Part shown: one piece after another, positions 2,977-34,678 of the stretch
Layout of the letters: each line of letters opens with the position of its first letter
Position numbering within the stretch: position 1 is the first letter of the stretch
NCBI GenBank assembly: GCA_963701025.1
Contig: OY969557.1
Location: forward strand, 570,042-634,041
Length of the DNA: 64,000 nt
Direction of reading: 5' to 3'
Origin: an uncultured bacterium
Lineage (GTDB): Bacteria > Patescibacteriota > Minisyncoccia > Phycocordibacterales > PALSA-1337
Notes under the pieces: generated by a model
Seen by the model: the letters and a program-made list of their open reading frames with translations, nothing else
What the model was told of the DNA's origin: nothing
Database searches by the model: none
Translations under genes and position numbers: made by a program

Positions 2977-3051
2977 TGGTGCCCTCGGAGGGACTCGAAC
3001 CCCCAACATCAGTTCCGAAGACTGGTGTGATATCCATTTCACCACGAGGGC
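2977..3051 (-). tRNA. tRNA-Arg (anticodon UCG), CCA encoded
   Basis: Reverse complement GCCCTCGTGGTGAAATGGATATCACACCAGTCTTCGGAACTGATGTTGGGGGTTCGAGTCCCTCCGAGGGCACCA. Anticodon loop CTTCGGA. Ends in CCA. Confidence 0.7.
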
Positions 3052-3095
3052 AATCAAACACGACCACATATGATCGTAGCGCTATAGTAGCGCAC

Positions 3096-5954: not shown

Positions 5955-5968
5955 AAAGGAAGTTTAAA

Positions 5969-5989
5969 GGTAAAAAGGTAAAAGGTAAA
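5969..5989. repeat. Tandem GGTAAAA x3 microsatellite in the xth-xerC intergenic region
   Basis: aaaGGTAAAAGGTAAAAGGTAAAAt lies 15 nt upstream of the xth start. Confidence 0.6.
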
Positions 5990-5998
5990 ATGATCTGT

Positions 5999-6925: not shown

Positions 6926-7004
6926 GGTTACATTGTAGCAGTAATGACAATCACCCACATTACATTCCTTGCCTCAATTACCCATTTATGCTATGATAAA
7001 GGCC

Positions 7005-12957: not shown

Positions 12958-13069
12958 ACAAGGTCGTTGGGGGTACATCGGCGATTTTCATCATTCCTTT
13001 ATCGGATCTTCATCGTTTCTTGAGGACTTTTTGAGCGTTTCTTTATCGCTCTCCTGATAGTCTGTGTGC

Positions 13070-18097: not shown

Positions 18098-18955
18098 ATG
18101 ACCAAAGACTCAAAAATACGGCCAAAAAAATCCTTGGGACAGCATTTCCTCAATTCGTCTCATGTGCTCGAGCAGATCATATCCGCCGCGGCCATCACCA
18201 AGGACGAGACTGTTCTGGAAATAGGTCCAGGAACGGGAATATTGACGGGAGCATTGCTCAAAGCCGACGCACATGTCATCGCCATTGAGAAAGACGATAG
18301 AGCATATGAGATGTTGAAGGAAAAATTCTCAAAAGAGATCTTCGACGGCAGATTAAGACTGACCCACGGAGATATCTTGAACCAAGATATCTTTAACACG
18401 AAGAATTATGCTATCGTCGCTAATATTCCGTACTACATAACCGGAGCAATATTGGAGAAATTCCTCGAGCATGAGCCCCGGCCGAACCGTATGGTCCTGC
18501 TCGTGCAGAGAGAAGTGGCTGAACGCATCGTGGCGCGGCCGCCTGACGGAACGGGACACGGAAAAGAGAGCGTTCTGTCCATTTCCGTGAAGGCCTTCGG
18601 CGATCCCAAGATCATCGCCAGAGTCTCACGCGGAGCTTTCACTCCTGTACCGACGGTCGACTCGGCAATTCTCGCCATTGAGAATATATCGGGCTCCAGT
18701 CTTGCGGGAAAAAACGCCTCTGCTATAGGACGATTCTTTGAGATTGTCCGAGCCGGATTCGCCCACAAGCGGAAGTTATTGATCAGGAATCTAGAGACCA
18801 TGGCTGACAGAGAAAAAGTGGCGGTTATTTGGAAAAAATTCGGTTTGGATGAGAAGGTCAGAGCCGAGGATATTTCCGTGCAGGATTGGCTGCGTATCGC
18901 CGAACATATCTCCCCAAATGCACACGGTCTTTCAAGCACGCACAATCTTTCATGA
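18098..18955 (+). CDS. rsmA: 16S rRNA (adenine1518/1519-N6)-dimethyltransferase
   Basis: GQHFL...VLEIGPGTGILT...NIPY are KsgA signature motifs. Confidence 0.85.
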   Translation: MTKDSKIRPKKSLGQHFLNSSHVLEQIISAAAITKDETVLEIGPGTGILTGALLKADAHVIAIEKDDRAYEMLKEKFSKEIFDGRLRLTHGDILNQDIFNTKNYAIVANIPYYITGAILEKFLEHEPRPNRMVLLVQREVAERIVARPPDGTGHGKESVLSISVKAFGDPKIIARVSRGAFTPVPTVDSAILAIENISGSSLAGKNASAIGRFFEIVRAGFAHKRKLLIRNLETMADREKVAVIWKKFGLDEKVRAEDISVQDWLRIAEHISPNAHGLSSTHNLS

Positions 18956-18967: not shown

Positions 18968-19948
18968 ATGAATAGGGTAGTCATCTCGATCGGCATCGTC
19001 ATACTCGTCGGACTGATCATGTTCGGCGTCTTGGCGTATTTGAATCGCTCCCCGGCGCAGACACCGTCCCCTCCGACTACGAATGGATTCCAAACCTTCG
19101 ACCGCGGTGGAGTCAGTTCTTCCGCCGCTCAAAATACTGAAAACGCCGCACCGATACCATATGCCGTGACGCCAACCTCGACTCCCGTACAACCGCCGGC
19201 GCCCGTCTACCAGGTCCCAATCGTGACGACTCAACCGGCCACATTTTCTGCGCCATTTATCCAGTATGTCCAGCCAAGTCCTGTCATAAGCCAACCGGTC
19301 ATCGTAGAGCAAACCCAACCGGAAGTTTCGCCGCCGCCTGTTCCGGAGCCACAGCCGATACAGGCACCGGTCGCGGCATCGACTTCCCCTTTGCCAAATC
19401 TCGCGGCCTACATTCCCTATAACGGACCGGCCTCGCCTCCACCCAAAACTGTAAGCTCGGGCGGAGGGGGCGGAGGGGGAAGCGACATCACTTCGATCCT
19501 GATAGACTTGGGAATAGGAGTCCTTGCGTATCTTGTGGCGGGACCGATCGGTGCCATTCTGGTCGGATCTCTGGCTGGTGGAATAACTTCGCTGTTCGGA
19601 GGTGGCGGAGGCGGGGGCGGGGGCGGCGGTTTGGGAGCATTGTTCGGTGGAAGCGGGAGCGGGGCAACGGGTAATTTTGGAGGCAAAATAACCAATGTCA
19701 CATATTGCACATGCAGCGTGTCTCTGATGCTAGACATAGACGATGTCAGGGGCCAATCTATTTCGCTCATATTCAGCCCGGGATCAAGCGACCTCTATGC
19801 CGACTACAACGTGTTCGAGTCCGGACCTGAAGTTCTGGGCACATACAGCCAAGGCGGGGGGCAATGCCAGGTATATAGCGGTGAGAGTTGCAATTCCCAA
19901 GGTTCGCCTCAAGGCACGATAAAGATGATCGGGACTTCGGAATATTAG
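18968..19948 (+). CDS. Hypothetical membrane protein (Pro-rich, poly-Gly runs)
   Basis: N-terminal TM segment, a P/Q/V-rich linker, G7-G11 runs flanking a second hydrophobic segment, and a Cys-containing C-terminal domain. Confidence 0.5.
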   Translation: MNRVVISIGIVILVGLIMFGVLAYLNRSPAQTPSPPTTNGFQTFDRGGVSSSAAQNTENAAPIPYAVTPTSTPVQPPAPVYQVPIVTTQPATFSAPFIQYVQPSPVISQPVIVEQTQPEVSPPPVPEPQPIQAPVAASTSPLPNLAAYIPYNGPASPPPKTVSSGGGGGGGSDITSILIDLGIGVLAYLVAGPIGAILVGSLAGGITSLFGGGGGGGGGGGLGALFGGSGSGATGNFGGKITNVTYCTCSVSLMLDIDDVRGQSISLIFSPGSSDLYADYNVFESGPEVLGTYSQGGGQCQVYSGESCNSQGSPQGTIKMIGTSEY

Positions 19949-20002
19949 CGCGCGTCTTGTTGATAACATAGCCGCCGAGAAAAGGCCTATAAATGCTACA
20001 AT

Positions 20003-20884
20003 ATGGCCAGCATGCCATACCCCGGTAGATCAACGGTGATCATCTTCGTAGCCTGCGCCGTGGCGGTCGGCGGGGCGGCTCTCTATGCCTATGGTGGATC
20101 AGGTAGCGGGCAATCAGCTCAGCAAAATCGTAACCAGATAGCGCTATCCGGCAATAATAATTCAATGTTGAACGCGACGGGAACCGCTGACGAGAGCTGG
20201 CGAGCCCAATTCCCGTACGCGACGACGAGCCAATACGCGGGTAAGCCTACCGCGAACGCGCCGACCGGACCGACCACCGTGACCGAAGCTCTCGGCATGG
20301 ATTTCCTGTCGCGTTTCGCCGATCTCAAACAAGCCAATCTTCTCAATAATACCGACATCGTCAACCAGACCGTCGACAACATGCTCTCGACCGATCTCAA
20401 CCCGGCCAAACCAAAGACTTACTCCGAGAGCGACCTTATCGTGGCGATGTCGACCAATACCACAAGCCTGGGAGCTTTCAGTGATGCGTTGGCGAACCTC
20501 ATTGATTCGTACGCGGCCACTACGAGCGAGGTCGAGATATTACAGGTATTCACCACGAATAATGATCCTTCGATCCTCTATGAGCTTCGGCCTATCATAG
20601 CCGAGCAGAAGAGAATTATAGCCGGAATATTGGCCATACCGGTGCCACAGACGCTTGTCAATGACGATGTCAACCTCTTGAACGGCATGAGCACGCTAGA
20701 GGCGGCGAGCGAATCACTGTATGCGGCTGACACGGATGCGGTCAGGGGCCTTGTGGGGTCCAGTCTGCACGCCGACGGGGCGCAAGCGGTGTCGGACGCC
20801 TTGTCGGCCATATATCAAGCGTTGGAATCGAGCGGCGTGCAATTCGGGCTCCATTGGGAAATACTCAATCCTTTGCTAAACTAA
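20003..20884 (+). CDS. Hypothetical membrane-anchored protein
   Basis: 293 aa with an N-terminal TM helix. Confidence 0.5.
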   Translation: MASMPYPGRSTVIIFVACAVAVGGAALYAYGGSGSGQSAQQNRNQIALSGNNNSMLNATGTADESWRAQFPYATTSQYAGKPTANAPTGPTTVTEALGMDFLSRFADLKQANLLNNTDIVNQTVDNMLSTDLNPAKPKTYSESDLIVAMSTNTTSLGAFSDALANLIDSYAATTSEVEILQVFTTNNDPSILYELRPIIAEQKRIIAGILAIPVPQTLVNDDVNLLNGMSTLEAASESLYAADTDAVRGLVGSSLHADGAQAVSDALSAIYQALESSGVQFGLHWEILNPLLN

Positions 20885-22665
20885 TGGGTAACATGGCCAC
20901 TAATCGGAAAAACTCGAGCGGAGCGGCAAACAGATGGCCGGCGATTTTGGTCGTTGCGTTTACCCTGTTGGTTGGCGCTCTATTTGGACCTTCCGTGGCT
21001 CACGCACAGCTCGGCAGTCTGACCTGTTCTTCGGCTTTGTTCGGTTCCGTCGGCAGTGCGTTAAGCAGTAATGTTCCGGTGGCGGACAGCCAGGTGCGAA
21101 GCAATACTACGGCCGTGAAGAATATCGACTGCACATGGAAAGGTATAGCCTGGCAGTTAGCTCATACCGTCTTGCACTCGCTCACAGGCAGTGTGGTCAA
21201 CTGGATCAACAGCGGCTTCCAAGGCAGTCCCGCATTCCTGACTAACCCGGAAGGATATTTCGCCAATCTCGGCGATCAGCTGACCGGGGCCTTCATATCA
21301 GACACGGGCATATTGGCCGGATTGTGCTCGCCTTTCAATATCGATATCCGTTTGGCGCTGGCCCTCGGCCAAGGAGGGCAGACCAATCCATACACCTGTA
21401 CCTTGGGCTCAATCATCAATAACGTCCAAAATTCTACTATAAACGGCATGAGTATCGGCGGATTCATGGGCGGAGACTTTTCGCAAGGCGGCTGGCCAGC
21501 ATTCATCGCCTTGGCCGAGCCGCAGAATAACGAGGCCGGCGCGTATCTCCAAGCCCACAGTGATCTTCTTGCGCGGATCGGCGCAAAGCAGGGCCAAGTC
21601 CAACAACAGCTCCTGCAGGGCAACGGATTCCTGTCATGGCAAAGTTGTAATGACATCACCTCCAGCATAGCCGGTGGCGGTTCGGTCACGCCCCAATACA
21701 TAAACCAAACGCTCGGCTTGAGCAACGCTCAATATGCCACTTTACAGAAGAACGTCGTCGGAACATATAACACCGGGAATGGAACCAGTATTCAGCAGAC
21801 CGCGGACGCAACAGGGGAACACTATTCCCAGTGCACTACGGAGACCCCGGGTTCGATCATCAACAGCTCGCTCGCCAAGACTCTGGGCGCATCGGCCGAC
21901 GAGCTCAATCTGACGAACGACATAAATCAGATCGTCTCGGCATTATTCTCCCAGCTCCTGTCTAAGACATTGCAGGGCGGATTGTTCTCGGCCAGCCACT
22001 CATCGTCGTCTGGTTCCAACCTCGGATCTTTGACCCAACAACTCATAAACGACCAACAAGCGCAGACCAATTCATCGGCTTTGCAGGGACAAGCGGCCGG
22101 TGAGGTCCAGTCCGGTGCCGCTGGAGCACAGCAGGCCGTGGCATACCGCACCCAGATATTGACGGCCATAACCGCCGAGCAGGTTTTGTACCAGACGACG
22201 CGCGCATGTATATACAATGAACTGAATGTGGCAACATCGAGTGCGGCCTCCAACGGACAAGGAGGATCTAACGGACAAGGAAGATTTTTCAACGGCTTGA
22301 CGAACCTCTTCAGCCCCCGGCTTTCAACGTCTTACCTGCAAAGCCAATTGTCTTCCATAGACACGGCCATAGCCGGCATAAACCATCAGATATCGGATGC
22401 GGCGACGAACCTGCAGACGGCGTCGAGCTCCGTTGCCTTATACCAGAGCATAGCCGATCAGATCCAGAACGCGCCGTCGCTCTCCTCGGCCACAGACTTG
22501 AGCAACCAGTATTCGGCGCAACTATCAACCGTTCCGTATAATGCCGCCGCAGACCCTGGAGCGGCCTACTCGGATCTCAATTCCACCATCGGCGGTATCG
22601 CGACTCTGGAGACCGCCCGCACGCCGTATCAGGCGACATGCAATGGCCAGCAATCAGGTAACTAG
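20884..22665 (+). CDS. Hypothetical secreted protein
   Basis: ATG overlaps the previous stop (TAATG). Signal peptide ...LLVGALFGPSVAHAQ. S/Q/N/A-rich mature protein. The track's 20854 start lies inside the previous gene. Confidence 0.5.
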   Translation: MGNMATNRKNSSGAANRWPAILVVAFTLLVGALFGPSVAHAQLGSLTCSSALFGSVGSALSSNVPVADSQVRSNTTAVKNIDCTWKGIAWQLAHTVLHSLTGSVVNWINSGFQGSPAFLTNPEGYFANLGDQLTGAFISDTGILAGLCSPFNIDIRLALALGQGGQTNPYTCTLGSIINNVQNSTINGMSIGGFMGGDFSQGGWPAFIALAEPQNNEAGAYLQAHSDLLARIGAKQGQVQQQLLQGNGFLSWQSCNDITSSIAGGGSVTPQYINQTLGLSNAQYATLQKNVVGTYNTGNGTSIQQTADATGEHYSQCTTETPGSIINSSLAKTLGASADELNLTNDINQIVSALFSQLLSKTLQGGLFSASHSSSSGSNLGSLTQQLINDQQAQTNSSALQGQAAGEVQSGAAGAQQAVAYRTQILTAITAEQVLYQTTRACIYNELNVATSSAASNGQGGSNGQGRFFNGLTNLFSPRLSTSYLQSQLSSIDTAIAGINHQISDAATNLQTASSSVALYQSIADQIQNAPSLSSATDLSNQYSAQLSTVPYNAAADPGAAYSDLNSTIGGIATLETARTPYQATCNGQQSGN

Positions 22666-22677
22666 CTATAACGAACC

Positions 22678-24552
22678 ATGCGTAAGAAATCTTACATCAT
22701 CACCGCGTGCGCCGTCCTCATCCTCATCGGCATGACATTTTCCGCGCCGACGGCGCATGCGCAGGTAATGGACGTATTGAAAGTGTTCGGTCTCAGCTTT
22801 GCGGACTTTGTCGCGGAAATCTTTGCTTCGATCGCGACTATGGCACTTTATATCATGTCATGGTGGGTTTCTATCACCGGCGCTCTGCTGAATGTCTCCA
22901 TCACATTGACTCTTCATATTAAAGATTTCGTCAACAGCACGAGTGGAGTCTACATAGTCTGGCAAACGATACGCGACATCTCCGGTTTGTTCATCATCTT
23001 CATGCTCTTGTACGCATCATTCAAGATCATTCTTGGCTTTGATACCGCAGGCGGAGTAGGGAACCTCATCAAAAATATCGTCATCGCAGGCATCCTCATC
23101 AACTTTAGCTTCTTCATCACTAGTCTCCTCATCGACGCGTCGAATATCGTTTCGCTCGCCCTATACAACGGCATTGTCGGCAGTCCGACAGCAACGACGG
23201 GTACGCAGACAGCCAATTGTCCGCAGACGACTGCGGGTGATTTGAGCACATGCGCCATCGCGGCAAATACGTTGGCAAGCAATAATACCGGCAATCTGGG
23301 AAGCATATTCATGGACAAGCTTAAGCCCCAAGACATATATAATCCGGCGAATACCCAGCTTGCGAGCCATGACCAAGGCCAAGGAACTAGTCCAGCGCCT
23401 CTGCAGATATTGATCCAAGGCGTGGTCGGATGCATCATTATGTTCACTGTGGGCATGAGCTTTCTTCTGGCATCACTCGCTTTCGTGGCTCGTCTGGCTA
23501 TACTCATAGTTTTGCTGGCTTTTTCACCCATCTGGTTCGCGGCAATGATCTTTCCCATACTTGAGGAAAAGAAAAAACATTTCACCGACCAGCTCTATGC
23601 CCAGCTGATCTTCATGCCGGTCTATCTGCTCCTCCTCTATGCCGCCATGACCGTGATCAAATACACCACCGTCTTCACCTCTCCAGGAACGGTATTTTCC
23701 GGCTCGGGAACGCCTTCTCTGATCCCGACAAATCTCATCGTTCTGGCCATTAATGATTTCTTCATCCTATTCCTGCTCAATATGCCGTTGGTTGTCGCCT
23801 TCGGCTTCGGAGGACACGCGACGGATTTCCTCGCGGGCGGAGTCAAGAAGTTCGGCGCGGCGAATGTGTGGAAGAATTTCGGTAGCCAGGCTGGGAGTCG
23901 TACGGTTGGACGTGTTGCTTATTCCCTCAATGAGAGTAATGCACTGAAGAGATTGGCCGGGGCTTCTCCCATCCTCGGCGGTCTTGCTTCCAAAGGTCTA
24001 TCGAATATAAGCTCGGCTGGCTTCGGCGTGAAGAAGGGGGGATATGAAGACCGGCTCAAAGCAAAGAAAAAGGCTCAGGACGAGTTGCACGAGAGAATTG
24101 GTGAACTTGACAGGAGTAATTATGCCACGGAAGCAGAGTTCCAGAAAGCACAGGAAAGGGCAAGGACCTACCAGGAGAAATATCGGGCAAATCTTCCTTG
24201 GAAGAGCAGTATCATGGGATTCATGTTGGATAACAGAGCAAATAAGCAGAGCCAGCGCAGTATGACTGAAGAAGCTGATGTGGAAAAGAACCAGACCAAA
24301 TTGGCTGAACTTATGAGCTCAGACGAGTATGTGAATTTGCAGAGAAGAATGAAACTGGCTCCTACTGATGAGGAAAAGGTGGCATTCGAGAAACTAAAGG
24401 GTATAGAAAATGAACTGAACGCCGTTATCAAACGTGGATCAAAAGGAAAGGGAAAGAAGGATCTAGCCGGTGTTATAAAACGCCTCGCCGAAGAAGCAAA
24501 GAAATCCGGCGGCAGTGAGGAAGGACCAAAAGAAGAACCCAAGACACCATAA
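22678..24552 (+). CDS. VirB6/TrbL-like polytopic membrane protein (T4SS-like)
   Basis: Signal peptide, then at least 6 TM helices with a large extracytoplasmic loop and a charged K/E-rich C-terminal tail. It sits with the PrgI and VirB4 homologues. Confidence 0.5.
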   Translation: MRKKSYIITACAVLILIGMTFSAPTAHAQVMDVLKVFGLSFADFVAEIFASIATMALYIMSWWVSITGALLNVSITLTLHIKDFVNSTSGVYIVWQTIRDISGLFIIFMLLYASFKIILGFDTAGGVGNLIKNIVIAGILINFSFFITSLLIDASNIVSLALYNGIVGSPTATTGTQTANCPQTTAGDLSTCAIAANTLASNNTGNLGSIFMDKLKPQDIYNPANTQLASHDQGQGTSPAPLQILIQGVVGCIIMFTVGMSFLLASLAFVARLAILIVLLAFSPIWFAAMIFPILEEKKKHFTDQLYAQLIFMPVYLLLLYAAMTVIKYTTVFTSPGTVFSGSGTPSLIPTNLIVLAINDFFILFLLNMPLVVAFGFGGHATDFLAGGVKKFGAANVWKNFGSQAGSRTVGRVAYSLNESNALKRLAGASPILGGLASKGLSNISSAGFGVKKGGYEDRLKAKKKAQDELHERIGELDRSNYATEAEFQKAQERARTYQEKYRANLPWKSSIMGFMLDNRANKQSQRSMTEEADVEKNQTKLAELMSSDEYVNLQRRMKLAPTDEEKVAFEKLKGIENELNAVIKRGSKGKGKKDLAGVIKRLAEEAKKSGGSEEGPKEEPKTP

Positions 24553-24557
24553 CGACA

Positions 24558-25277
24558 ATGAAACAATTCACCACTGAACAGCTTCAAGACCACTTCGCGA
24601 AACTGCCGAAAGACCTGCAGGAAGCGGTCTCTTCTGCCGAAGTCCGCGATTCGGTCGAGAAAATAGGCAAGAAATACGGCCTCCACATAGACCAGCTGGG
24701 AGAGATGGTGGACTTGGTCGGCCTGATCATGCTCGGACTTTCCCCTTCGAAAGATTTCGTCAGGAATTTCTCGCAGGAAGCGGGGGTGAAGACGGACATC
24801 GCCACGTCGATCGCGGAAGACATCAACAACGAGGTCTTCGGCAAGATACGATCTTCCATGCAGGCCATTGAGGCGAAAGACGAAGCCGTCGAAGCGCAAA
24901 AGACAAAAGCCGAACAGAGCATAACTGACCTGGAGCGCATCGGCGGTTTCAGCATAGAGCCGTCAACAGGTCAGGATGGGGACGGGACGGCGCCGGCTAA
25001 CTTGCCGGGAGCGGAAGAAGTCGATGAAAGCCCGGATGAATTGATAGCCGGAATCGAGAACCCGCCGCCTATAAAGACTTCAAACTCCTCATTTGTACGT
25101 CCTTCGAGTCCTGTGCCGGAAGAGAACCATACGGACATAATTGTCGATCATCTGCTCACGGGTCCTGTGGCCGCGGGCGAACAGAAAACGATACAAATAC
25201 CTGAACCAGCGAAGAGCGCGCCTATCGAGCCGAAAAAGCCCGTCGGACCTGATCCCTACAAGGAGCCGATCAATTGA
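24558..25277 (+). CDS. Hypothetical protein
   Basis: 239 aa with an acidic, Pro-rich C-terminus. Confidence 0.45.
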   Translation: MKQFTTEQLQDHFAKLPKDLQEAVSSAEVRDSVEKIGKKYGLHIDQLGEMVDLVGLIMLGLSPSKDFVRNFSQEAGVKTDIATSIAEDINNEVFGKIRSSMQAIEAKDEAVEAQKTKAEQSITDLERIGGFSIEPSTGQDGDGTAPANLPGAEEVDESPDELIAGIENPPPIKTSNSSFVRPSSPVPEENHTDIIVDHLLTGPVAAGEQKTIQIPEPAKSAPIEPKKPVGPDPYKEPIN

Positions 25278-25303
25278 AATTGAAAGTGTGTTATAGTGTC
25301 CGC

Positions 25304-25600
25304 ATGAATACTGTCGAGGAGATTGCCGTGACCGCTAAGCCCGTATTGCAAAAGTATGGCGTGAAATCTGCTGGAATTTTCGGGTCACGCGCCCGTGGCG
25401 AATCCCGACCGGACAGCGATATTGACATACTCGTTTCATTCGGTGAAAAACCTATCTCGTTGTGGGATATGGTCGCCCTCAAAGATGAATTGTCACGACT
25501 GCTTCACGGGGTCGTAGATCTTATTTCCGACAAGGCTATAGTGCCGTATTTTAAAGATTATATCTATCATGACCTCAAACCAATCTATCCTCAAGGATAA
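25304..25600 (+). CDS. mntA: MNT-type nucleotidyltransferase (antitoxin of a HepT/MNT pair)
   Basis: GIFGSRARGESRPDSDIDILVSF is the minimal nucleotidyltransferase motif. The track's start at 25274 is an alternative. Confidence 0.75.
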   Translation: MNTVEEIAVTAKPVLQKYGVKSAGIFGSRARGESRPDSDIDILVSFGEKPISLWDMVALKDELSRLLHGVVDLISDKAIVPYFKDYIYHDLKPIYPQG

Positions 25601-25919
25601 GAGCGCGTATCTTCGCCTAATGCTCGACTCATTCGGCAAAATACGTGCGTACACAGCGGGGATGTCTTACGCTAACTTTATCGATGACGGAAAGACTCAA
25701 AGCGCTGTCATCATGCAACTGCAAGTCGTTGGCGAATTGGCAAAATCAGTGCCGGATGACGTCAAAACTTCGATTGACGTGCCTTGGAAGAACATAGCCG
25801 GATTGCGGGATCTCATAGCTCATCAGTATTTCAATTTGGACCTGGCCATGGTGTGGCACACGACGCAAGAAAGCATCCTGGACGTCGAGAAGAAAATACA
25901 AGAGTATCTCAACGTATGA
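25569..25919 (+). CDS. hepT: HepT-like (DUF86) HEPN RNase toxin
   Basis: GLRDLIAHQYFNLD is the Rx4HxY HEPN motif. Overlaps the MNT gene by 32 nt, as is typical for this TA pair. Confidence 0.75.
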   Translation: MTSNQSILKDKSAYLRLMLDSFGKIRAYTAGMSYANFIDDGKTQSAVIMQLQVVGELAKSVPDDVKTSIDVPWKNIAGLRDLIAHQYFNLDLAMVWHTTQESILDVEKKIQEYLNV

Positions 25920-25950
25920 AGGATGCCCAGGTTAAGGTATAATTAACCCA

Positions 25951-26385
25951 ATGCGCTTCCAAGTTCCCCAATTCATCGAGGTTGAGGACAAGATCTTCGG
26001 GCCGCTCACCTTGAAGCAGTTCATCTACATGGCCGGTGGGGGCGGATTGGCTTTCCTCATATACGTATTCGTCAACAATCTCCTAGTATCCATCATTCCC
26101 ATACTGGTCGTATTGGCCATATCAGCCGTTCTGGCTTTTTACAAGGTCAACAATCGCCCGTTCATCAACGTCATGGAATCGGCCTTCAAGTATTTCCTCG
26201 GCGGCAAGCTCTACATGTGGAAGAAAGAGGAAAAGCCGAGGCCGAAAGACGCCGAGTCTGCTCTCAAGGACGCGAAGAATTACGCTTCTGTCATGGTGCC
26301 AAAGATCGCCGACAGCAAGCTCAAGGACCTGGCGTGGAGTCTGGATATCAAAGAGAGCATATACTCGAATAAAAATCAAAAATGA
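25951..26385 (+). CDS. PrgI-family (VirB3-like) T4SS membrane protein
   Basis: MRFQVPQFIEVEDKIFGPLTLKQFIYMAGGG is the PrgI family N-terminal signature, followed by two TM helices. Confidence 0.65.
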   Translation: MRFQVPQFIEVEDKIFGPLTLKQFIYMAGGGGLAFLIYVFVNNLLVSIIPILVVLAISAVLAFYKVNNRPFINVMESAFKYFLGGKLYMWKKEEKPRPKDAESALKDAKNYASVMVPKIADSKLKDLAWSLDIKESIYSNKNQK

Positions 26386-26408
26386 AAAAGTAAAATGTAA
26401 AATTTTCA

Positions 26409-28913
26409 ATGGCCACCAAACAATCTACAACCCAGGACTTCATCCCAATCCAGGAGATCCGCGACGGCATCGTCATCCTGAAATCCGGCGGCATGCGCTC
26501 GATCATCCTCTGCACTTCTCTCAATTTCGCCCTGAAGTCGGCAGACGAGCAGAGCTCCATCCTGATGCAGTTCCAGAACTTCCTGAACTCGCTCGATTTT
26601 TCCATACAGATATTCGCCCAGTCCAAGAAGCTGGACATCCGTCCGTACATCGCCCTCCTGGAAGACCGCTACAAGGAGCAGACAACCGAGCTCATGAAGA
26701 TACAGGTGCGCGAATACATAGAATTCATCAAATCGTTCGTGGAATCGACCAGCATCATGTCCAAGAGCTTCTTCGTGGTCGTGCCGTATGATCCGGCTAT
26801 CATGAGCGCCAGCAAGAATCCCCTGATCGAACGCCTTGCCTGGCAGGAAGAACAAGAAGGCTCTCCTGCGGCCAAGGCTTCCGCCGACCAGAGCTTCGCC
26901 GAATACCGGAGCCAGCTGGAACAGCGCGTGGCCGTGGTGGAGCAGGGACTGGTGCGTTGCGGCATCACGCGCGGCAGAGCTGGGCACGGAAGAGGTGGTC
27001 GAACTTTTCTACAAGCTCTTCAACCCGGGCGAAACGGAAAAGCCGATACAGATAACGTGAAGATAGGAGTTGGGAGCTAGAAGTTAGGAGAAAAAACATG
27101 TCATTCATCAGCAATATATTCAAGAAAAAAGAGGCTTCGCCAATAGTCTCCATCCTGCCGGAAGAGATATATCAGGCCGGCGTCCTGGAACTGAAGGATG
27201 TCATAGCTCCGTCGGCCCTCAAAGTCAGCCCGAAGGAGCTCAACTTGGGCGAGAAGGTCGGCCGTACTCTTTTCGTCATCTCCTATCCGCGCTTCCTGGA
27301 CGAGAGCTGGTTCGCGCCCATCATCAACCTGGACAAGGTCTTCAACATCTCCATATTCATCCATCCCGTGGACACGGCCAAGATTCTGCGCCATTTCCAG
27401 AAGAAAGTCGCCGAAGTCCAGAGCCAGATCTCCAGGAGGGAAGAGAAGGGCTTGGTGCGCGATCCCGCCCTGGACACGGCCTATCAGGACCTGGAACAGC
27501 TGCGCGACCAGCTGATGCAGGCCCAGGAGCACCTCTTCGACGTCGGCGTCTATATCACCATATTCGCCGACAACGAGAACGAGCTCGACAAGCTGGAGTC
27601 CGAGATCAAGTCCATCCTGGAGTCCAAGCTCGTCTATCGTGAAGCCGGCTCTGTTCCAGCAGGAGCAGGGATTCAAGAGCGTCATCCCCATCGCCGACGA
27701 CCAGCTCTACGGTCCATTCCAAGCTCAATTCCTCGCCGCTCTCCAGCGTCTTTCCATTCGTGTCCTTCGACCTCACCTCCAGACAAAGGCATCCTCTACG
27801 GCATCAATCGCCACAACTCGTCATTGGTCCTGTTCGACCGCTATTCTCTGGAGAACTACAATTCCGTGACATTCGCCACGGCCGGCGCCGGAAAATCATA
27901 TTGCACCAAGTTGGAGATATTGCGCACGCTCATGTTCGACGTCGACGTCATCGTCATCGACCCTGAAAAAGAATACGAGTACATGGCCGAAGCCACCGGC
28001 GGCAAATATTTCAATATATCCCTCAATTCCGAGCATCACATCAATCCGTTCGACCTGCCGATCGCCCGCGAAGATGAGTCGAGTGCCGACGTCCTGCGCT
28101 CGAATATCATCAACCTGGTCGGCCTGTTCCGCATCATGCTCGGCGGCCTGTCGCAGGAGGAAGACGCCATCATAGACCGCGCCATCACCGAGACCTACGC
28201 CTTGAAAGACATCACTCCCGACTCTAATTTCAAGGACGTCGAGCCGCCGCTCCTGTCAGACTTCGAGCTCGTCCTGGCCGGCATGGAGGGAGCCGATTCG
28301 CTCGTCCAACGCCTGTCGAAATACACCAAAGGCACTTGGGCCGGCTTCATCAACCGCCCGTCGAACGTCGACATCAACAAGAAATTCATCGTCTTCTCCC
28401 TGCGCGACATGGAAGACGAGCTCAAGCCGGTGGCCATGTATCATGGTCACGCACTATATCTGGAACGCCATCAGCAAGGAGCTGAAGAAGCGCCTCCTGG
28501 TCATAGACGAGGCCTGGTGGATGATGAAGTCGGAGGATACCGCCTCATTCCTGTTCGGTCTGGCCAAGCGCGGCCGCAAATACTTCCTCGGCCTGGCCAC
28601 CATCACCCAGGACGTGGACGACTTCCTCAAATCGCCCTACGGCATGCCCATCGTCACGAACTCATCCATCCAGATCCTTCTGAAGCAGTCGCCGACCATC
28701 ATCGATCATATCCAGCAGACATTCAATCTGACCGATGAGGAGAAATATCTCCTGCTCGAGTCCGACGTCGGCGAAGGCATATTCTTCGTGGGGCTCAAGC
28801 ACGTGGCCATCAAGATCGTCGCCTCGTATACCGAGGACCAGATCATCACCACCAATCCCCAGCAGGTCATCGCCATCAGGGACGCAAAGCGGCAGTTGGA
28901 GCAGGCGGGGTAG
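26409..28913 (+). pseudogene. VirB4/TrbE-like T4SS ATPase, disrupted by at least six frameshifts or stops
   Basis: CagE_TrbE_VirB-like N-terminus (DFIPIQEIRDGIVILKSGGMRSI...ADEQ). Frame change near 26965. Stop at 27060. Restart at 27098 (PRFLDESWFAPIINLD). Three successive +1 shifts between 27650 and 27790; only the composite reading gives ...ALFQQEQGFKSVIPIADDQLYG.., SFPFVSFDLTS and KGILYGINRHNSSLVLFDRYSLENYNSVTFATAGAGKSY (Walker A), and the frame-0 read there is P/R/S-rich with A/T-ending codons. One more shift near 28440 precedes the intact C-terminal region (DEAWWMM...ITQDVDDF...). Confidence 0.7.
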
Positions 28914-28920
28914 AGAGAAG

Positions 28921-28947
28921 TTCTAATTGGTCTAATTTCTAATTACC
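28921..28947. repeat. TCTAATT-rich intergenic element, copy 2 of 3
   Basis: ttctaattggtctaatttctaattacc lies immediately after the virB4 stop. Confidence 0.45.
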
Positions 28948-28956
28948 TAAACAAAA

Positions 28957-29460
28957 ATGGCTTCGAAGATCAAAAAACCGGAGTGGATCGCCTTGTTCGC
29001 CGTTACGGGCCTCATTGATCTGGTTCAGCTCTTGGGCGACCTGTTCTTGAGTGAGGCCTTTGCCGCTCCGGAGGTCATAAATGAGATCGTCGACCCGTTC
29101 ATAGGCGTATTCTTGGGCGGCTATTTTCAATTCCGCGGGGTCGAGATACTGCGTCAGCCGAAAAGAGTCTTGTCTCTCCTCGGAGTGACCGGTCTAGAAG
29201 AGCTGACCGGGGCTATGGCGCCCGGATGGGTATTCGACGTCTGGTATATATATAAGAGCGTCCGGACTGAAGAAGCTGAATCGCAGGCGCAGAAAGAGCA
29301 GGAGGAATGGAAACAGCAGGTCATGCAACAGGCTAGAGCTAGTAATTTTAACGGCAGGAGAGAAGCGTCGCTCGGACCGGAAGCCGAGCGCGTTTCATCA
29401 GCACCGTCCATAGCCAGATACTTCAAGGGCATAGGTCGTCCAAGGGGCAACGAAGCGTGA
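28957..29460 (+). CDS. Hypothetical small membrane protein
   Basis: 167 aa with two hydrophobic segments and a charged C-terminus. Confidence 0.45.
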   Translation: MASKIKKPEWIALFAVTGLIDLVQLLGDLFLSEAFAAPEVINEIVDPFIGVFLGGYFQFRGVEILRQPKRVLSLLGVTGLEELTGAMAPGWVFDVWYIYKSVRTEEAESQAQKEQEEWKQQVMQQARASNFNGRREASLGPEAERVSSAPSIARYFKGIGRPRGNEA

Positions 29461-29506
29461 ATAACTGGCATCGCAAAGGCCTATATATATTGCTAGAATA
29501 GAGCCA

Positions 29507-30559
29507 ATGAAACGCGCCTATTTTCTAATGGTTTCCGTGAGTTTCCTGCTACTTTCCGTCTGCTACTTGCTACCTGCCAATGTTTCAGCCCAAAGCCTCC
29601 CTGCCGGTATCACAAGTATCACACTGACCACGTCATCCCAGAACCCGGCCCCGGGACAGAGCGTTACCGTGACCGCGACGAGCTACAGCTTTGACATAAA
29701 TTCCGCGATGATCATCTGGACAGTCAACGGCAAACAGGTCCAGAAAGGCATCGGCGCCACGACTCTGTCAGTGACCGCGCCCGCGCTCGGCAAGACCACG
29801 ACGGTGGGCATCGAGGCTGTCACGACGGACGGCCAACGCTTTACCAATTCTCTCGCCCTCGGTTCCGGATCCGTGGATATGATCATCGAGACCGACGGTT
29901 ACGTGCCTCCGTTTTTCCTTGGCAAGACACCGCTCGTCTTTGAGAACAATGTCACTGTCATAGCCGTCCCTCACTTGGCTAACGCATCGGGCAAAGAATA
30001 TGATCCGTCGACGCTCGTATATCAATGGAAAAAAGACGATGGGACCGTCTTGCAGGATCAGTCCGGATACGACAAACAATCGATCACCCTGGCGGGAAGT
30101 ATCATTCCGAGACCGTATTATCTCATCGTCACCGCGTCATCGCGCGACGGCTCCGCTCAAGGACAGGGCATCGTACTGATCTCCCCGCAATCCCCGTCAG
30201 TGACATTCTATAAAGATGATCCACTGTACGGACCATTCTTTAACGAAGCGATTGGCAATACGCTCTTCATCGGATCACAGAAGGAGGCCAGCGCTTTTGC
30301 CTCATTGTTCGGCTTCAATTTTTCTCCGAGCAATGGCGGCGATCTGACTCTCGATTGGTCCATCAACGGCGCATCGCATCCCGAATTGGCCTCGAGCCAA
30401 TCGGTCGTCCTGCGCGCACCGGATGGAGTATCCGGCACGTCGGCTATATCTTTGAGCATCCAAGGGGTGAAGGACATCCTGCAGGGAGCGAGCGGCGCCT
30501 TCACGGCGGCCTTCAGCGCCAGCGGGCCATCCGCTTCGACGACGCCGGTAACGTTTTAA
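29507..30559 (+). CDS. Hypothetical secreted protein (beta-rich, Ig-like repeats)
   Basis: Signal peptide MKRAYFLMVSVSFLLLSVCYLLPANVSAQ. T/S/V-rich repeated beta-strand pattern. Confidence 0.5.
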   Translation: MKRAYFLMVSVSFLLLSVCYLLPANVSAQSLPAGITSITLTTSSQNPAPGQSVTVTATSYSFDINSAMIIWTVNGKQVQKGIGATTLSVTAPALGKTTTVGIEAVTTDGQRFTNSLALGSGSVDMIIETDGYVPPFFLGKTPLVFENNVTVIAVPHLANASGKEYDPSTLVYQWKKDDGTVLQDQSGYDKQSITLAGSIIPRPYYLIVTASSRDGSAQGQGIVLISPQSPSVTFYKDDPLYGPFFNEAIGNTLFIGSQKEASAFASLFGFNFSPSNGGDLTLDWSINGASHPELASSQSVVLRAPDGVSGTSAISLSIQGVKDILQGASGAFTAAFSASGPSASTTPVTF

Positions 30560-30564
30560 ATACG

Positions 30565-31848
30565 ATGAAATCAATCCTTAACAAATATAAAATTCTGGCC
30601 TTTGTTCTGATCAGTTTTGTCTTGGTCGGAATTTCTATGCCTTCCATGGCCCAGGCAGTGGATACGAAATACACGCCATTGGCTCCGTTGCCGTGCATCC
30701 CAAGTTCAGGATCGATAGATTCAAGTGGGGCTATCATTCCAAGTTCTGTGGTCACCTGCGGCCAAGGCAGTGCCGGCTCACCGCAGACGAGCGTCAATGT
30801 TCAAACCTACATCCAATACGCCGTCAATCTTCTCATTGCCTTGGCGGCCGTGGCGGCCGTCTTTATGATCACCTGGGGAGGATTCGAATATATGACGACC
30901 GATGCGGTTACAGGAAAAGAGGAAGGCAGGAAAAAGATAACGAATGCCATTTATGGGCTTCTCCTAGTACTGTGTTCATATCTCATCTTACGCACCATCA
31001 ATCCGCAGTTTGTACAGATACCAGTGGGGTTGGTGACACCACTCGGGTTGAGTTCGCAAAACACCACTGCCGATTGGCTCACGACCGTAGGAAATGAGAT
31101 GAACGCCTACAACGTCAACCAAACCGCTCTTAGACAGACCATAGCCGATGCCAATGCTGCCGCGGCCGTGCTTCAAAATCAATTGAGCGTTGCTCAAAAC
31201 GCAGAAAAGGACGCGTGTTATACGTATGGCGACACTTCCCAAGAATGCAAAGACGCTATGAATAAAACCGACTCGACCCAAAATCAACTGATTCAACTAC
31301 AGAGCAATACTGGCCTTATAACCGCAAAAGGTATCATAGATGGCAACGTGGCGGCATGTGGTACTACCGGTAGTTTAAACAGTCAGGTAACCGGATCAAG
31401 TAATGGGAATTGTTATACGAATAACCTAGCTGCTATTGATTCGATCCTGGCCAATTCGACTCTTACGAGTCGGTTACAACCAAACGATCTGCAAGCATTG
31501 AAGAATTATGCGGCTACATCAAAAACGACTCTGACTATGGATAGCTGGGTGAATTATTATAACCAATCGCTTGCAAATTATAATCAGACATACTTTGGAG
31601 CAGGCGACAATGCCGTCTACGGAGCCCTGCAAAGAGCGAACACTGCGATAGTCCCTGGAGCGCTCACAGGAAGCAATGCGGCGTATAATGCTACAGTGCT
31701 CGCTCAAACGAATGCGCTTGCAAATATTGACGCCGACCTGCAATCGGCAAAGTCAACTGTGACGGATCCAGCTGAATACCAACAACTTGTTACCCAGGCG
31801 CAAGCGCTCAAGGCTCAAATAAGCTCACAAAGTCCTAAAAAACCTTAA
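30565..31848 (+). CDS. VirB2/TrbC-like pilin N-terminal domain fused to a long Q/N/A-rich C-terminal extension
   Basis: Signal peptide, then two hydrophobic helices (LLIALAAVAAVFMITWGGFEY...; ITNAIYGLLLVLCSYLIL) as in T4SS pilins, followed by about 280 aa of low-complexity coiled-coil-like sequence. The track ORF starts at 30355; the first Met with a signal peptide is at 30565. Confidence 0.45.
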   Translation: MKSILNKYKILAFVLISFVLVGISMPSMAQAVDTKYTPLAPLPCIPSSGSIDSSGAIIPSSVVTCGQGSAGSPQTSVNVQTYIQYAVNLLIALAAVAAVFMITWGGFEYMTTDAVTGKEEGRKKITNAIYGLLLVLCSYLILRTINPQFVQIPVGLVTPLGLSSQNTTADWLTTVGNEMNAYNVNQTALRQTIADANAAAAVLQNQLSVAQNAEKDACYTYGDTSQECKDAMNKTDSTQNQLIQLQSNTGLITAKGIIDGNVAACGTTGSLNSQVTGSSNGNCYTNNLAAIDSILANSTLTSRLQPNDLQALKNYAATSKTTLTMDSWVNYYNQSLANYNQTYFGAGDNAVYGALQRANTAIVPGALTGSNAAYNATVLAQTNALANIDADLQSAKSTVTDPAEYQQLVTQAQALKAQISSQSPKKP

Positions 31849-31852
31849 GAAT

Positions 31853-33106
31853 ATGTCCCGTAAACTACTCATATCAATATCGGCGATTGCAATCGTATTG
31901 ATCCTTATTGCTTTCGCGTACTGGTACTTCCTTCTGCATCCCTCAAACCAAACCACCGGCACATCAAATTCTCCTTCAACGGGCTACTCACCTTTCGGCA
32001 GAACGCCTTCAGGATCTAACCAAGGAACTTCGACGGGGAATACCGTCACGAACAGCCCAAGCGCGCCTGTCGCGATACAAATACCGGCCCTGCGGCTCCT
32101 GTCGGCCACTCCGGTCGGGGGATACGCCGCTTCGACCACGGCTTCAACGACGGTGGTGCGCTGGATAGACCGCGGCAGAGGCAATGTATTGCAGGCGACG
32201 GAGGACTCTCTCGACATTCAGACTCTTTCGAATACTTTGCTGCCAAAGATGTATCAGAGCGTCTGGGGCAAAGGCCTCAATTCCTTGATCGGTTCGGTGC
32301 TTGCCGACGACGACGCGACGGTATCGACCTTATACGCCGCCATGGTGCCGCAGAGCACCAGCACCGCGAGCGCTCCGTATCGGCTTCAGGGTAAGAATCT
32401 GCCGGCTGACATCGTCTCGTATGCCGTTTCCCCGAAGAAGGACAGAATATTCCTCTTCGCCGTGCAGGGAGGCCAAGGCATTGGCTATGTGGCTCCGTTC
32501 AATGGCGGTACGGCCGTCCAGATATTCGCCACTCCGGTCACGCAGGTGAATGTGAGCTGGCCGGAAGAGAACACCATAGCCATCACCACCAAGGGTTCGG
32601 CAGGAGAAGCCGGTTTCCTGTACTTCGTCGACCCGAGGACGGGCGCATGGAAGAAGATCCTCGGGCCTCTGCCGGGATTGTCCGCTCTGGTAAGCCATGA
32701 CGCGCGCTATGCCATCGTCTCGATAACCGGCGGCGCGGACAATGTTCTCACTTCGATATACGCCATAGCCACATCGAGCGGCGTGGACGCTATCATACGC
32801 ACTTTGGCCGACAAATGCGTCTGGGGCAATTTCTACAAGGACATGGTCTATTGCGCCGTGCCTTTCCAGCCGGTCTCCGGAACCTATCCAGACGATTGGT
32901 ACAAAGGCACTCTCTCCACCGTCGACAAGATCTGGCAGGAGAACGCCGTGACCGGCGAGGTGCACCTGGTCTCGTCGCTCTTCGAGCAAGCGCAGACCAA
33001 TATAGACGCCTTTAATCTCGCTTTGGACGACAAAGACAACTATCTCTTCTTCATGAACAAGCTCGACCTTTCGCTCTGGTCGCTCGACTTGGTGTCGCCT
33101 AATTGA
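31853..33106 (+). CDS. Hypothetical membrane-anchored/secreted protein
   Basis: 417 aa with an N-terminal TM helix, an S/T/N-rich linker and a beta-rich domain. Confidence 0.45.
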   Translation: MSRKLLISISAIAIVLILIAFAYWYFLLHPSNQTTGTSNSPSTGYSPFGRTPSGSNQGTSTGNTVTNSPSAPVAIQIPALRLLSATPVGGYAASTTASTTVVRWIDRGRGNVLQATEDSLDIQTLSNTLLPKMYQSVWGKGLNSLIGSVLADDDATVSTLYAAMVPQSTSTASAPYRLQGKNLPADIVSYAVSPKKDRIFLFAVQGGQGIGYVAPFNGGTAVQIFATPVTQVNVSWPEENTIAITTKGSAGEAGFLYFVDPRTGAWKKILGPLPGLSALVSHDARYAIVSITGGADNVLTSIYAIATSSGVDAIIRTLADKCVWGNFYKDMVYCAVPFQPVSGTYPDDWYKGTLSTVDKIWQENAVTGEVHLVSSLFEQAQTNIDAFNLALDDKDNYLFFMNKLDLSLWSLDLVSPN

Positions 33107-33117: not shown

Positions 33118-33864
33118 CTAATTGATGGCGTTCACGCCCTTTTTATTTAGATATCTTTTTCGGATGACGAGTTCCTGCCCGAGGGTGAATAACGAGCTGA
33201 CCGACCAGTAAATGGCGATGATGGAGGCCGCCTGCGGGAACTTGACCGGAATAATCCAGTACGTGGAGGCGAAGGCTATGATCGGCAAAAGGAATTTCAT
33301 CTGAGTGTTCATGGAATTGGCCATGTTCGGGGTCGAGCTCTTGGGCGCGGCGCGCTGCTGGCGCGAAGCCAGAGAATAATGCATCTGGAAGAATTGGATG
33401 ATCGCCGTAATAAGAGAAAGGACCAGGCTCGGCTTCAAAAGGTCAAGCCCGAGCAGGGAAGGCAAGGCCTTTGGCACGTGGATGAAGCTGTATAGAAGCG
33501 TCGGGTCTACCGCCGGAGTTATCTTGTAAAAGACGGAGATGAGGGCCAGTAGTATCGGCAATTGGATGATGAGCAGAAGGATGCCCGAGAACGGGTGGAT
33601 GCCTTTCGATTTGTAGAGCTCCATGACCTTCAAGCCTTGAGCCTGCTTGTCTTTGGCGTAATCGGCCTTGATCTTATTGGCCTCCGGCTCGACTTCTTTC
33701 ATCTTGACCTGGGTCAGAAGAGCCTGTTTCGAAAGAGGAAATATGATCAGGCGGACGATGATGGTAAAGAGGATAACGGCAATGCCGACATCGATCCACG
33801 GGAGTAGGTCCATCAGACCGACGAGACCGTTATAAAGAGGCAGGAATATGAATTGATGATACAT
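33118..33864 (-). CDS. yidC: Membrane protein insertase YidC (short Oxa1 type)
   Basis: 248 aa. Conserved ...IIVRLIIFPLSKQ...KMKEVEPE...IHPFSGILLLIIQLPIL... Sits in the rpmH-rnpA-yidC operon position. Confidence 0.85.
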   Translation of the reverse strand: MYHQFIFLPLYNGLVGLMDLLPWIDVGIAVILFTIIVRLIIFPLSKQALLTQVKMKEVEPEANKIKADYAKDKQAQGLKVMELYKSKGIHPFSGILLLIIQLPILLALISVFYKITPAVDPTLLYSFIHVPKALPSLLGLDLLKPSLVLSLITAIIQFFQMHYSLASRQQRAAPKSSTPNMANSMNTQMKFLLPIIAFASTYWIIPVKFPQAASIIAIYWSVSSLFTLGQELVIRKRYLNKKGVNAIN

Positions 33865-33893: not shown

Positions 33894-34313
33894 CTATACA
33901 CCAATTCTCGCTTTTGAGAAAAGAGTTTTGAGGTCAGCGGCCATGCCTTCGAACTCGGCTGTGATCGCCGTCGTTTTGGCGAAAATGATGGCGTGCGTGC
34001 CAGGAATCATGGAACTGGCCGTGGGTTGTGCGGCTGGCGGAACGCTCGTTGAAACAATCGCCTGGACTGCCTCGTACATGCGTCGGCGTATGCGGTTCCG
34101 AAGCACGGCCGTTGGCGCGATCTTTTTTGGCGCCACGGCGGCGATCTTGATTCCTCCGCTCTCCTTGCTCCTTACTTCCTTCTCCTTACTCTCTGCTTCT
34201 TGCTTCCCGTGTTCCAGCACCCGCATGAGAAAAAGAGGGGAGTGATATATCTTTCCTTTTTCCATGACCTCCGAAAACTGCTTAGTGGAAAGCCTGCGGG
34301 ATCTTTTGATCAT
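33894..34313 (-). CDS. rnpA: RNase P protein component
   Basis: KKIAPTAVLRNRIRRRMYEAV matches the RnpA motif. Position is conserved. Confidence 0.8.
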   Translation of the reverse strand: MIKRSRRLSTKQFSEVMEKGKIYHSPLFLMRVLEHGKQEAESKEKEVRSKESGGIKIAAVAPKKIAPTAVLRNRIRRRMYEAVQAIVSTSVPPAAQPTASSMIPGTHAIIFAKTTAITAEFEGMAADLKTLFSKARIGV

Positions 34314-34340: not shown

Positions 34341-34475
34341 TTATACGGCGATCCTGTGACGGCCTTTGGCGCGACGCGCTGAAAGGGCCTTTCGGCCGCC
34401 GGGCGTCTTCATGCGCACGCGAAACCCATGGCTCTTGGCACGCTTGCGCTTGTTCGGCTGGTAGGTGAATGACAT
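34341..34475 (-). CDS. rpmH: 50S ribosomal protein L34
   Basis: [44 protein letters not shown], 44 aa. It is the internal Met of a 69-aa track ORF. Confidence 0.85.
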
Positions 34476-34678
34476 GGCAAGACTATAGTATATAAACGTG
34501 AAAGAAGCAAGAAAATAAATCATTGACACGCCGCGAGCGCTACAATTCATTTTCTTGATTACAAATATCTTTTATATTATTTTTGCAAATTCTTATCCCC
34601 AACTTATCAACAGCTTTTAAACCGGTTGGCAAGTTTGCAAAATCGCAAACAAGTATATACTTAGACCTATTCAAAGCC

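Follow-up and report, generated by a model that had tools for sequence, protein, structure and literature searches.

The DNA analysed here (the window, 64,000 nucleotides of contig OY969557.1 from an uncultured bacterium of the Patescibacteriota) carries, at positions 18968-33106, an unbroken run of plus-strand genes whose products are, according to the listing and translation of the open reading frames (ORFs), membrane and secreted proteins. This cluster is very probably a chromosomal, vertically inherited type IV secretion system (T4SS) of the Patescibacteria clade that goes back to the MPF-FATA systems of monoderms and has the layout of the Paceibacteria. The judgement is a single one for the whole explanation and takes in the inferred assembly of the apparatus, its non-conjugative role and the reading of its frameshifts as artefacts. 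The system itself is already known, and the locus adds no new kind of system. The original prediction, which was made from the sequence of the window, held that such systems remain poorly described; this is out of date, as the system, its components and its proximity to dnaA in Paceibacteria have since been covered (Quinonero-Coronel et al., 2025; PMC12102498). Much else in that prediction stands. Every ORF that it named as part of a same-strand envelope gene cluster was found on the plus strand at its predicted start, and the cluster does end at the yidC side of the replication origin, with yidC-rnpA-rpmH and then dnaA-dnaN directly downstream (Table 1). The signal-peptide or transmembrane (TM) proteins with low-complexity linkers were also borne out by hydropathy and sequence: A, B, C, D, J, K, the pilin and M each have a TM or signal-peptide-like segment at the N-terminus in a simple hydropathy scan, and the linkers are rich in Pro and Gly in A, in Ser, Thr and Asn in M, in Gln, Ser and Asn in C, and in Lys and Glu in the tail of D. 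Three features had escaped it, namely the distribution of VirB4 over two genes, five single-base insertions and an inserted MNT/HepT gene pair.

Contigs with the closest VirB4 proteins, together with 80 loci of GTDB species representatives, gave a set of 83 related loci that was searched by tblastn. The order (UvrD)-RsmA-[A]-[B]-C-D-E-PrgI-TrsD-VirB4-[J]-K-pilin-M-yidC(-)-rnpA(-)-dnaA-dnaN was seen in ~40/40 loci with full flanks. The synteny comparison that had been proposed as a check on the cluster thus yields a gene order common to full Paceibacteria loci from different GTDB species, and the attribution to ultra-small bacteria agrees with the source names of the homologues (Paceibacteria, Taylorbacteria and Zambryskibacteria). 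Conservation along the cluster is highly uneven (Table 1): the ATPase module surpasses DnaA in this respect, and the exposed parts change rapidly. VirB4 shares 97% of its amino acids but only 58% of its third codon positions with the closest locus (L002); for DnaA the two figures are 90% and 53%. High protein identity combined with saturated third positions indicates that purifying selection has acted on a chromosomal cluster passed on vertically, as opposed to recent transfer. Recent horizontal spread as the source of VirB4 conservation is likewise ruled out by the saturated third codon positions.

Four core components can be named. PrgI scores 44.6 bits against PF12666 where the cutoff is 27 (E 2e-11), which is above the Pfam gathering threshold and upholds its designation as PrgI/VirB3-like. 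It was found in 83/83 loci and lies directly upstream of the TrsD-like ORF; a look-up of the exact window product returned no public protein on record. The TrsD-like ORF of the window has no match in the Pfam copy used, and intact 215-aa orthologues carry PF26593 (TraC-like). This ORF is present in 83/83 loci, in a single frame in all of them, and in one relative it is fused to VirB4 (846 aa). VirB4 as assembled matches P-loop_TraG/DUF87 with 28 bits, and the frame-corrected protein matches P-loop_TraG with 89 bits (E 3e-25). Over 8,000 homologues were retrieved with the corrected protein. They belong to Paceibacteria, Taylorbacteria and 'Parcubacteria', and many are named VirB4 or TraC by their sources; the best of them (603-605 aa) are 90-96% identical to the query, and thousands of Paceibacteria proteins with these names fall at 90-97%. 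Walker A (GAGKS) and Walker B (LLVIDEAW) motifs are both readable. The earlier assignment to a VirB4-like ATPase therefore holds for the family and fails for the single gene, which is in fact a TrsD-like ORF and a separate 603-codon ATPase, both with interrupted frames. Finally, the pilin matches PF18895 (T4SS_pilin) at residues 78-143 with 34.3 bits against a threshold of 26.6 (E 2.5e-8). This domain follows a signal peptide and covers two hydrophobic helices, with the long C-terminal extension behind it; a weak NCBIfam match points to a Mycoplasma pilin-like family of integrative and conjugative elements (ICEs). Found in 69 loci, the pilin is conserved only in its N-terminal third. Its family had been predicted correctly, and its start had not: the ATG at 30565 is the start codon, not the TTG upstream at 30355. 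Searches that could have placed these anchors in unrelated families did not do so, with PrgI and the pilin above their Pfam thresholds and VirB4 identified by homology.

Table 1. Genes of the T4SS cluster, its flanks and other features in the window. Identity is the median amino acid identity of related loci to the window.
Feature	Position	Strand	Description	Identity
UvrD-type helicase	16044-18086	+	Pfam; upstream flank, kept in related loci	
RsmA/KsgA	18098-18955	+	Pfam; upstream flank, kept in related loci	
A	18968-19948	+	326-aa membrane protein	
B	20003-20884	+	293 aa, N-terminal TM	27%
C	20884-22665	+	593-aa secreted protein	32%
D	22678-24552	+	624-aa polytopic protein, VirB6/TrbL-like (moderate support)	28%
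E	24558-25277	+	239-aa cytoplasmic protein	31%
MNT	25304-25600	+	nucleotidyltransferase, Pfam PF18765/PF01909	
HepT	25569-25919	+	RNase, Pfam PF01934	
PrgI	25951-26385	+	144 aa, 2 TM, PF12666	57%
TrsD/TraC-like	26409 to ~27058	+	VirB4 N-terminal-domain homologue	64%
VirB4-type ATPase	27098-28913	+	603 codons in relatives	81%
J	28957-29460	+	167-aa small membrane protein	
K	29507-30559	+	350-aa secreted protein, three tandem repeats	32%
VirB2-like pilin	30565-31848	+	PF18895 domain and C-terminal extension of ~280 aa	
M	31853-33106	+	417 aa, N-terminal TM	32%
yidC	33118-33864	-	Pfam; origin-side flank	44%
rnpA	33894-34313	-	Pfam; origin-side flank	
rpmH	34341-34550	-	gene calls on same-strain contig L005	
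dnaA	34583-36022	+	Pfam; origin-side flank	59%
dnaN	36207-37313	+	Pfam; origin-side flank	49%
ComM-like Mg-chelatase ATPase	13064-14629		outside cluster	
PilB/T2SSE-type ATPase	43848-45434	-	outside cluster	
CoiA	58998-59789	-	outside cluster	

These components and their setting correspond to what has been described for Patescibacteria as a whole. The patescibacterial VirB4 proteins form a clade within MPF-FATA, the machinery with which monoderms conjugate, and a homologue of the VirB4 N-terminus is often encoded apart, as a TrsD ORF (Quinonero-Coronel et al., 2025; PMC12102498). In the same survey, PrgI/VirB3, VirB6 and VirB2-like pilins of the PF18895 type lie near virB4, homologues of VirB8 and VirB1 are very few, relaxases are almost absent and coupling proteins are usually distant, and the T4SS of Paceibacteria is close to dnaA, dnaN, rnpA, ksgA and rpmH (PMC12102498). 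The window cluster shares with the Paceibacteria system VirB4, the separate TrsD-like ORF, PrgI/VirB3, a candidate VirB6 and the PF18895 pilin, as well as the chromosomal position beside those five genes, the extreme conservation of VirB4 within the class, and the lack of a relaxase and of a nearby coupling protein. With regard to the latter, no relaxase or VirD4-type coupling protein was found in 40 window ORFs scanned (20 from the cluster and flanks and 20 further large ones, with ~20 smaller ORFs left out). There is no difference in kind between the two, although the window copy has five apparent frameshifts and the MNT/HepT pair, and its proteins C, E, J, K and M are outside the component families listed in the text of that paper.

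The VirB6 position in this scheme would be filled by protein D. Hydropathy indicates ~7 TM segments and a K/E-rich helical cytoplasmic tail, so that the predicted polytopic nature of D is confirmed, and its identity as a VirB6/TrbL-like protein has moderate support from four lines that are each weak. First, 5/46 members of the D family match PF04610 (TrbL/VirB6; best E 1.6e-4), the sole recurring family among them; D of the window has no Pfam match of its own. Second, in a Foldseek search of the PDB with an AlphaFold model of D (built with 65 homologues, pLDDT 76), the matches of highest probability are to TrwI/VirB6 chains of R388 (0.97 for 7o3v_G, and 0.96), with TM-scores of 0.45-0.47 on the target. 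Third and fourth, the family profile of D aligns by hhalign to R388 TrwI with E 0.006 and to PrgH of pCF10 with E 0.013, and both alignments fall on one conserved segment of D, R272...LAFSP(I/L)(W/F). Taken together, these similarities suggest that VirB6-like is the best reading of D. Precomputed PF19590 tags on some D homologues were not reproduced at E<=0.01.

The remaining genes encode proteins to which families could rarely be assigned. NCBIfam searches with A to M were at noise level except for the weak pilin match, and profile searches of PDB sequences with D, C, M, K, E and B returned only coiled-coil or borderline matches. Two of these genes are accessory. A, which was detected in 8/83 related loci and is thus variable, has an N-terminal TM segment, Pro-rich and poly-Gly stretches, a second TM segment and a Cys-containing C-terminal domain, and has no Pfam or NCBIfam match. 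B was found in 30 loci and evolves fast; its N-terminal TM segment precedes an extracytoplasmic domain of ~260 aa that has no Pfam, NCBIfam or PDB-profile match, and comparisons with the VirB8 prototypes TrwG and PrgL showed no similarity.

Five others are fixed neighbors of the T4SS genes. C, which was found in 57 loci and is identical from its start at 20884 to a public protein (P0122), belongs to a very large family whose profile collects 5,478 clusters at 50% identity with E<=1e-3 and 2,392 with E<=1e-30, with no Pfam or NCBIfam assignment. Its N-terminal domain is rich in Cys, Trp and Gly, with invariant W, G, P, D and C residues, and is modelled with low confidence; in the AlphaFold model (mean pLDDT 66), helices 397-586 form a confident C-terminal bundle of ~190 residues. 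Foldseek gave only generic helical or coiled-coil-type matches and was uninformative, because the conserved N-terminal domain is predicted at low confidence. Some relatives of C carry added discoidin or Ig-like domains, which fits a surface-exposed protein. E (57 loci) has a conserved helical N-terminal domain, a disordered linker and a C-terminal D-P-Y-(R/K)-E-P-I peptide (25233-25277) that looks like a docking motif. This motif occurs once in the window, and its residues D232, Y234 and E236 are invariant in 45 sequences; E has no PDB or Pfam assignment. J evolves fast and is kept in position more than in sequence: tblastn detects it in only 16 loci, while in most of 70 loci the gap that separates VirB4 from K is occupied by an ORF of 110-190 aa with 2-4 TM segments. 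K, found in 79 loci, consists of a signal peptide and three homologous tandem repeats of ~105 aa, which align to each other by hhalign with probabilities of 84-96% (E 1e-8 to 8e-6) and show weak Ig-type matches in Pfam and the PDB (PDB E 0.02-0.2). In M, found in 62 loci, an S/T/N-rich linker connects the N-terminal TM segment to an extracytoplasmic domain of ~330 aa, which is possibly a beta-propeller given similarities, all weak, to TolB (E 0.08-0.3) and, in one member, to DPPIV_N (5e-4).

The proposal that the unannotatable partners are candidate components is thus sustained for C, E, J, K and M, which are conserved in position and have no family assignment. They are good candidates for subunits, with roles inferred from location and topology only. 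That they are structural subunits of a pilus-bearing monoderm T4SS, in which they would replace the functions of VirB8, VirB1, VirB5 and adhesins, is a bolder proposal that we give a little under an even chance. If true, an ultra-conserved ATPase module (81%, above DnaA) would be paired with fast-evolving surface parts (~30%), a combination that would amount to adaptation to host surfaces. In Paceibacteria, at least five unannotated proteins always accompany the known T4SS genes, and these offer concrete targets for work on structure and interactions.

An apparatus can be outlined from these parts. PrgI/VirB3, the TrsD-like protein and VirB4 would energise assembly at a VirB6-like membrane platform and together form the energy and channel module of the cytoplasmic membrane. 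Outside the cell, the secreted proteins C and K and the long-extended pilin may make up a filament or contact structure or be attached to it. M and J would anchor this structure, and E would link cytoplasmic partners; A and B would be variable members of a lineage-specific envelope set. Such an apparatus would act on a host cell as a pilus or contact device for the export of proteins or the exchange of macromolecules. Given the lack of a relaxase or coupling protein in the scanned ORFs, the cluster is most likely not conjugative. By analogy with the essential system of Saccharibacteria, a pilus or contact apparatus that works on the host cell is the more likely role. The T4SS is among the few machines common to nearly all Patescibacteria. 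It is essential in the one species tested, Southlakia epibionticum, where it is needed for epibiotic growth (Wang et al., 2023; PMC10633639; PMC12857230). The system of that species (SEML1_0006-0019) resembles the window cluster in being Gram-positive-like, in having pilin genes and in lacking a recognisable relaxase or coupling protein, and its locus tags suggest a position near the origin, as in the window (Wang et al., 2023). In contrast, it belongs to another class and has six divergent pilins instead of one long pilin. Its virB4 is followed by genes for peptidase and lysozyme, and the window cluster has no recognised hydrolase. It is also the sole experimental anchor, as the Paceibacteria system is known from genes alone. 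Outside the cluster, an M23 peptidase with LysM repeats is encoded 3 kb upstream on the opposite strand (14653-15786, minus strand). Domains of this sort near virB4 have been noted before (PMC12102498), and this peptidase is a possible cell-wall-opening partner in a VirB1-like role.

Transport might instead run inwards. Reviews of the Saccharibacteria T4SS discuss both effector delivery and uptake as its roles (PMC12857230; PMC11665869), and one of them proposes the acquisition of nucleotides through the T4SS, with ComB as the precedent (PMC11665869). Accordingly, the cluster could be a DNA-uptake device like Helicobacter ComB or an importer that supplies nucleotides, and not an exporter or adhesion pilus. 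The absence of a relaxase and coupling protein, seen in the window scans and reported for the clade (PMC12102498), would suit such a device, and the competence-related proteins ComM and CoiA are encoded in the same window. However, both belong to the classical competence route of ComEC and type IV pili and lie outside the cluster. Deletion of comEC in S. epibionticum abolished transformation but not viability, and so the essential role of its T4SS is not exerted via ComEC (PMC12857230). The window data do not bear on the direction of transport, and taken together we regard uptake as unlikely.

A different challenge comes from the reading frames. Alignment of the DNA with two intact orthologues locates five +1 single-base insertions, one in the TrsD-like gene (~26967) and four in VirB4 (27639, 27708, 27782 and 28443); three reading frames are needed to cover the VirB4 region. 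The first garbles the last ~30 codons of the TrsD-like gene. In VirB4 as assembled, a highly conserved stretch of 48 residues is garbled, and Walker A is in frame while Walker B, after the last shift, is out of frame. Deletion of the four VirB4 bases restores an ORF of 603 codons that is 97% identical to that of L002. We judge it highly probable that all five are consensus artefacts and not signs of decay. This is because the relatives are intact (0/83 have interruptions in either gene), all five events are insertions, the affected VirB4 sites are polymorphic, allele pairs are seen at two of them, constraint is not relaxed and contigs break at this place. None of the insertions duplicates a neighboring base. 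Each of the four VirB4 sites lies in a polymorphic alignment column, and columns as variable as these make up only 37% of the total. At two sites, reading the codon with one or the other of the doubled bases gives exactly the two residues that occur naturally, L/V at column 196 (CTG/GTG) and N/D at column 243 (AAC/GAC), which is the signature of a consensus across two haplotypes. The frame-corrected VirB4 shows no relaxed constraint relative to L002 (97% of amino acids and 99% of second codon positions identical). Short-read contigs from the same sample (ERR11718638) bracket PrgI-TrsD-VirB4 with their breaks: one (L001) is 100% identical to the window and ends at 25989, and the next (L005) starts at 28499, with 12 mismatches at 28547-28820, all within VirB4, and none in the following 7.2 kb. 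In this scenario, near-identical VirB4 sequences of co-occurring Paceibacteria would collapse during assembly and leave errors in the consensus, and the T4SS machine is probably intact in the organism. No broken genes were noticed elsewhere in the window, where no systematic test was made. Programmed frameshifting can be rejected as a cause, as the five shifts are all +1, have no slippery or homopolymer context and are conserved in 0/83 relatives.

It is also conceivable, if less so than uptake, that the same cluster has truly been inactivated, with the TrsD-like gene and VirB4 as recent pseudogenes and the machine out of use in this strain. The given sequence does contain the five insertions, and the 546-aa ORF that results has lost the frame of Walker B. 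The product of this ORF is absent from the public record while the neighboring C and D are present, which fits an annotation as a pseudogene, and the cluster has taken up a toxin-antitoxin cassette of foreign origin. On the other hand, decay would have had to deliver five independent indels without any excess of amino acid changes, all of them insertions without base duplication, those in VirB4 at polymorphic codons and two of these at allele pairs. It is precisely here that contigs from short reads of this sample are broken or mosaic. No relative is interrupted, and the remaining genes of the cluster are all intact. We therefore consider inactivation improbable. The extreme conservation of VirB4 can evidently corrupt metagenome assemblies, and apparent T4SS pseudogenes in bacteria of the Candidate Phyla Radiation need a check against the reads before gene loss is called.

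The cassette just mentioned (25304-25919), a type II toxin-antitoxin pair, follows the E stop codon and precedes the conserved -10 box of PrgI. Its two genes overlap by 32 nt and are well assigned, MNT to PF18765/PF01909 (E 1e-12) and HepT to PF01934 (E 9e-23). With a GC content of 46.7% against 53.5% for the cluster, and with no counterpart in related loci (0/83), this pair is a strain-specific insertion unrelated to the T4SS machine.

The idea that the cluster is a conjugative element, or the remnant of one, integrated beside the origin is very improbable: VirB4 is nested in MPF-FATA (PMC12102498) and the pilin weakly resembles the Mycoplasma ICE protein, but the cluster is fixed between rsmA and yidC in ~40 species, its third codon positions are as saturated as those of dnaA, its GC content of ~53% equals that of the flanks, and neither an integrase nor a relaxase or coupling protein was seen next to it in the ORFs scanned.

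Several observations weigh against a vertically inherited, intact and non-conjugative Paceibacteria T4SS. The search for a coupling protein and relaxase was confined to the window of an 876-kb genome, and nothing in the cluster could be recognised as VirB8-like or VirB1-like. The lines that lead to VirB6 are singly weak (Foldseek E 0.27; hhalign probability 3-6%; D without a Pfam match), and the five extra bases stand in the sequence as given. Function, moreover, is extrapolated from the Saccharibacteria T4SS, whose own role has been called 'completely unknown' (PMC11665869).

Two classical systems share some features with the cluster and differ in others. The MPF-FATA systems of monoderms (pCF10 Prg/Pcf and pGO1/pIP501 Trs/Tra) share with it the PrgI family and a VirB4 of the TraG P-loop type, to which pGO1 adds a TrsD-like ORF and pCF10 the VirB6-like PrgH, whose residues 139-251 are those aligned by the D profile. 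However, these systems are borne on plasmids or ICEs and have a relaxase, a VirD4-like coupling protein, the hydrolase PrgK, the VirB8-like PrgL and LPXTG adhesins, none of which was found in the window, and they lack the VirB2 pilin that the window cluster has. No similarity to pCF10 proteins was found for the profiles of C, M, K, E and B; for C, M, K and E, the comparison with pCF10 proteins (PrgC to PcfA) and Tn916 orf13/14 was run by hhalign with an ill-chosen global flag and is uninformative. Similarly, the minimal Gram-negative VirB/Trw system of R388 shares the VirB2-like pilin domain and VirB3/VirB4 homology and supplies, in TrwI/VirB6, the best matches of the D model, while the window cluster lacks its outer-membrane core (VirB7, VirB9 and VirB10) and VirB11. 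C shows no similarity to VirB5/TrwJ, and B none to VirB8/TrwG.

Several minor features of the window deserve mention. A hexamer of the -10 type (TANN[AT]T) ends no more than 10 nt before the start at 22/61 ORF starts in the window, against a background of 6.5%, and a Shine-Dalgarno-like motif precedes 7/61. Leaderless mRNAs, or mRNAs with very short leaders, thus seem common in the window. One such box, TATAAT, stands 7 nt before the PrgI start, and the same box is kept in L002. A consensus scan for promoters and terminators over the cluster stayed at chance level. DnaA boxes are not enriched within the window, and 9-mers that resemble them with one mismatch each occur at 34593-34612, where they fall slightly within dnaA as annotated at its 5' end, and at 36083 in the dnaA-dnaN spacer; the TTG start of dnaA at 34583 may be placed too far upstream. 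The stretch 57295-58658 encodes Cas1 (PF01867, E 5e-65) and, overlapping its downstream end, a small ORF that is maybe Cas2. Both ends of the window (1-7000 and 60000-64000) have a lower GC content of 42-47%, and the left end, which encodes a Bro-N protein, four tRNA genes and an XerC/D-type integrase (5999-6958, minus strand), may be an integrated element.

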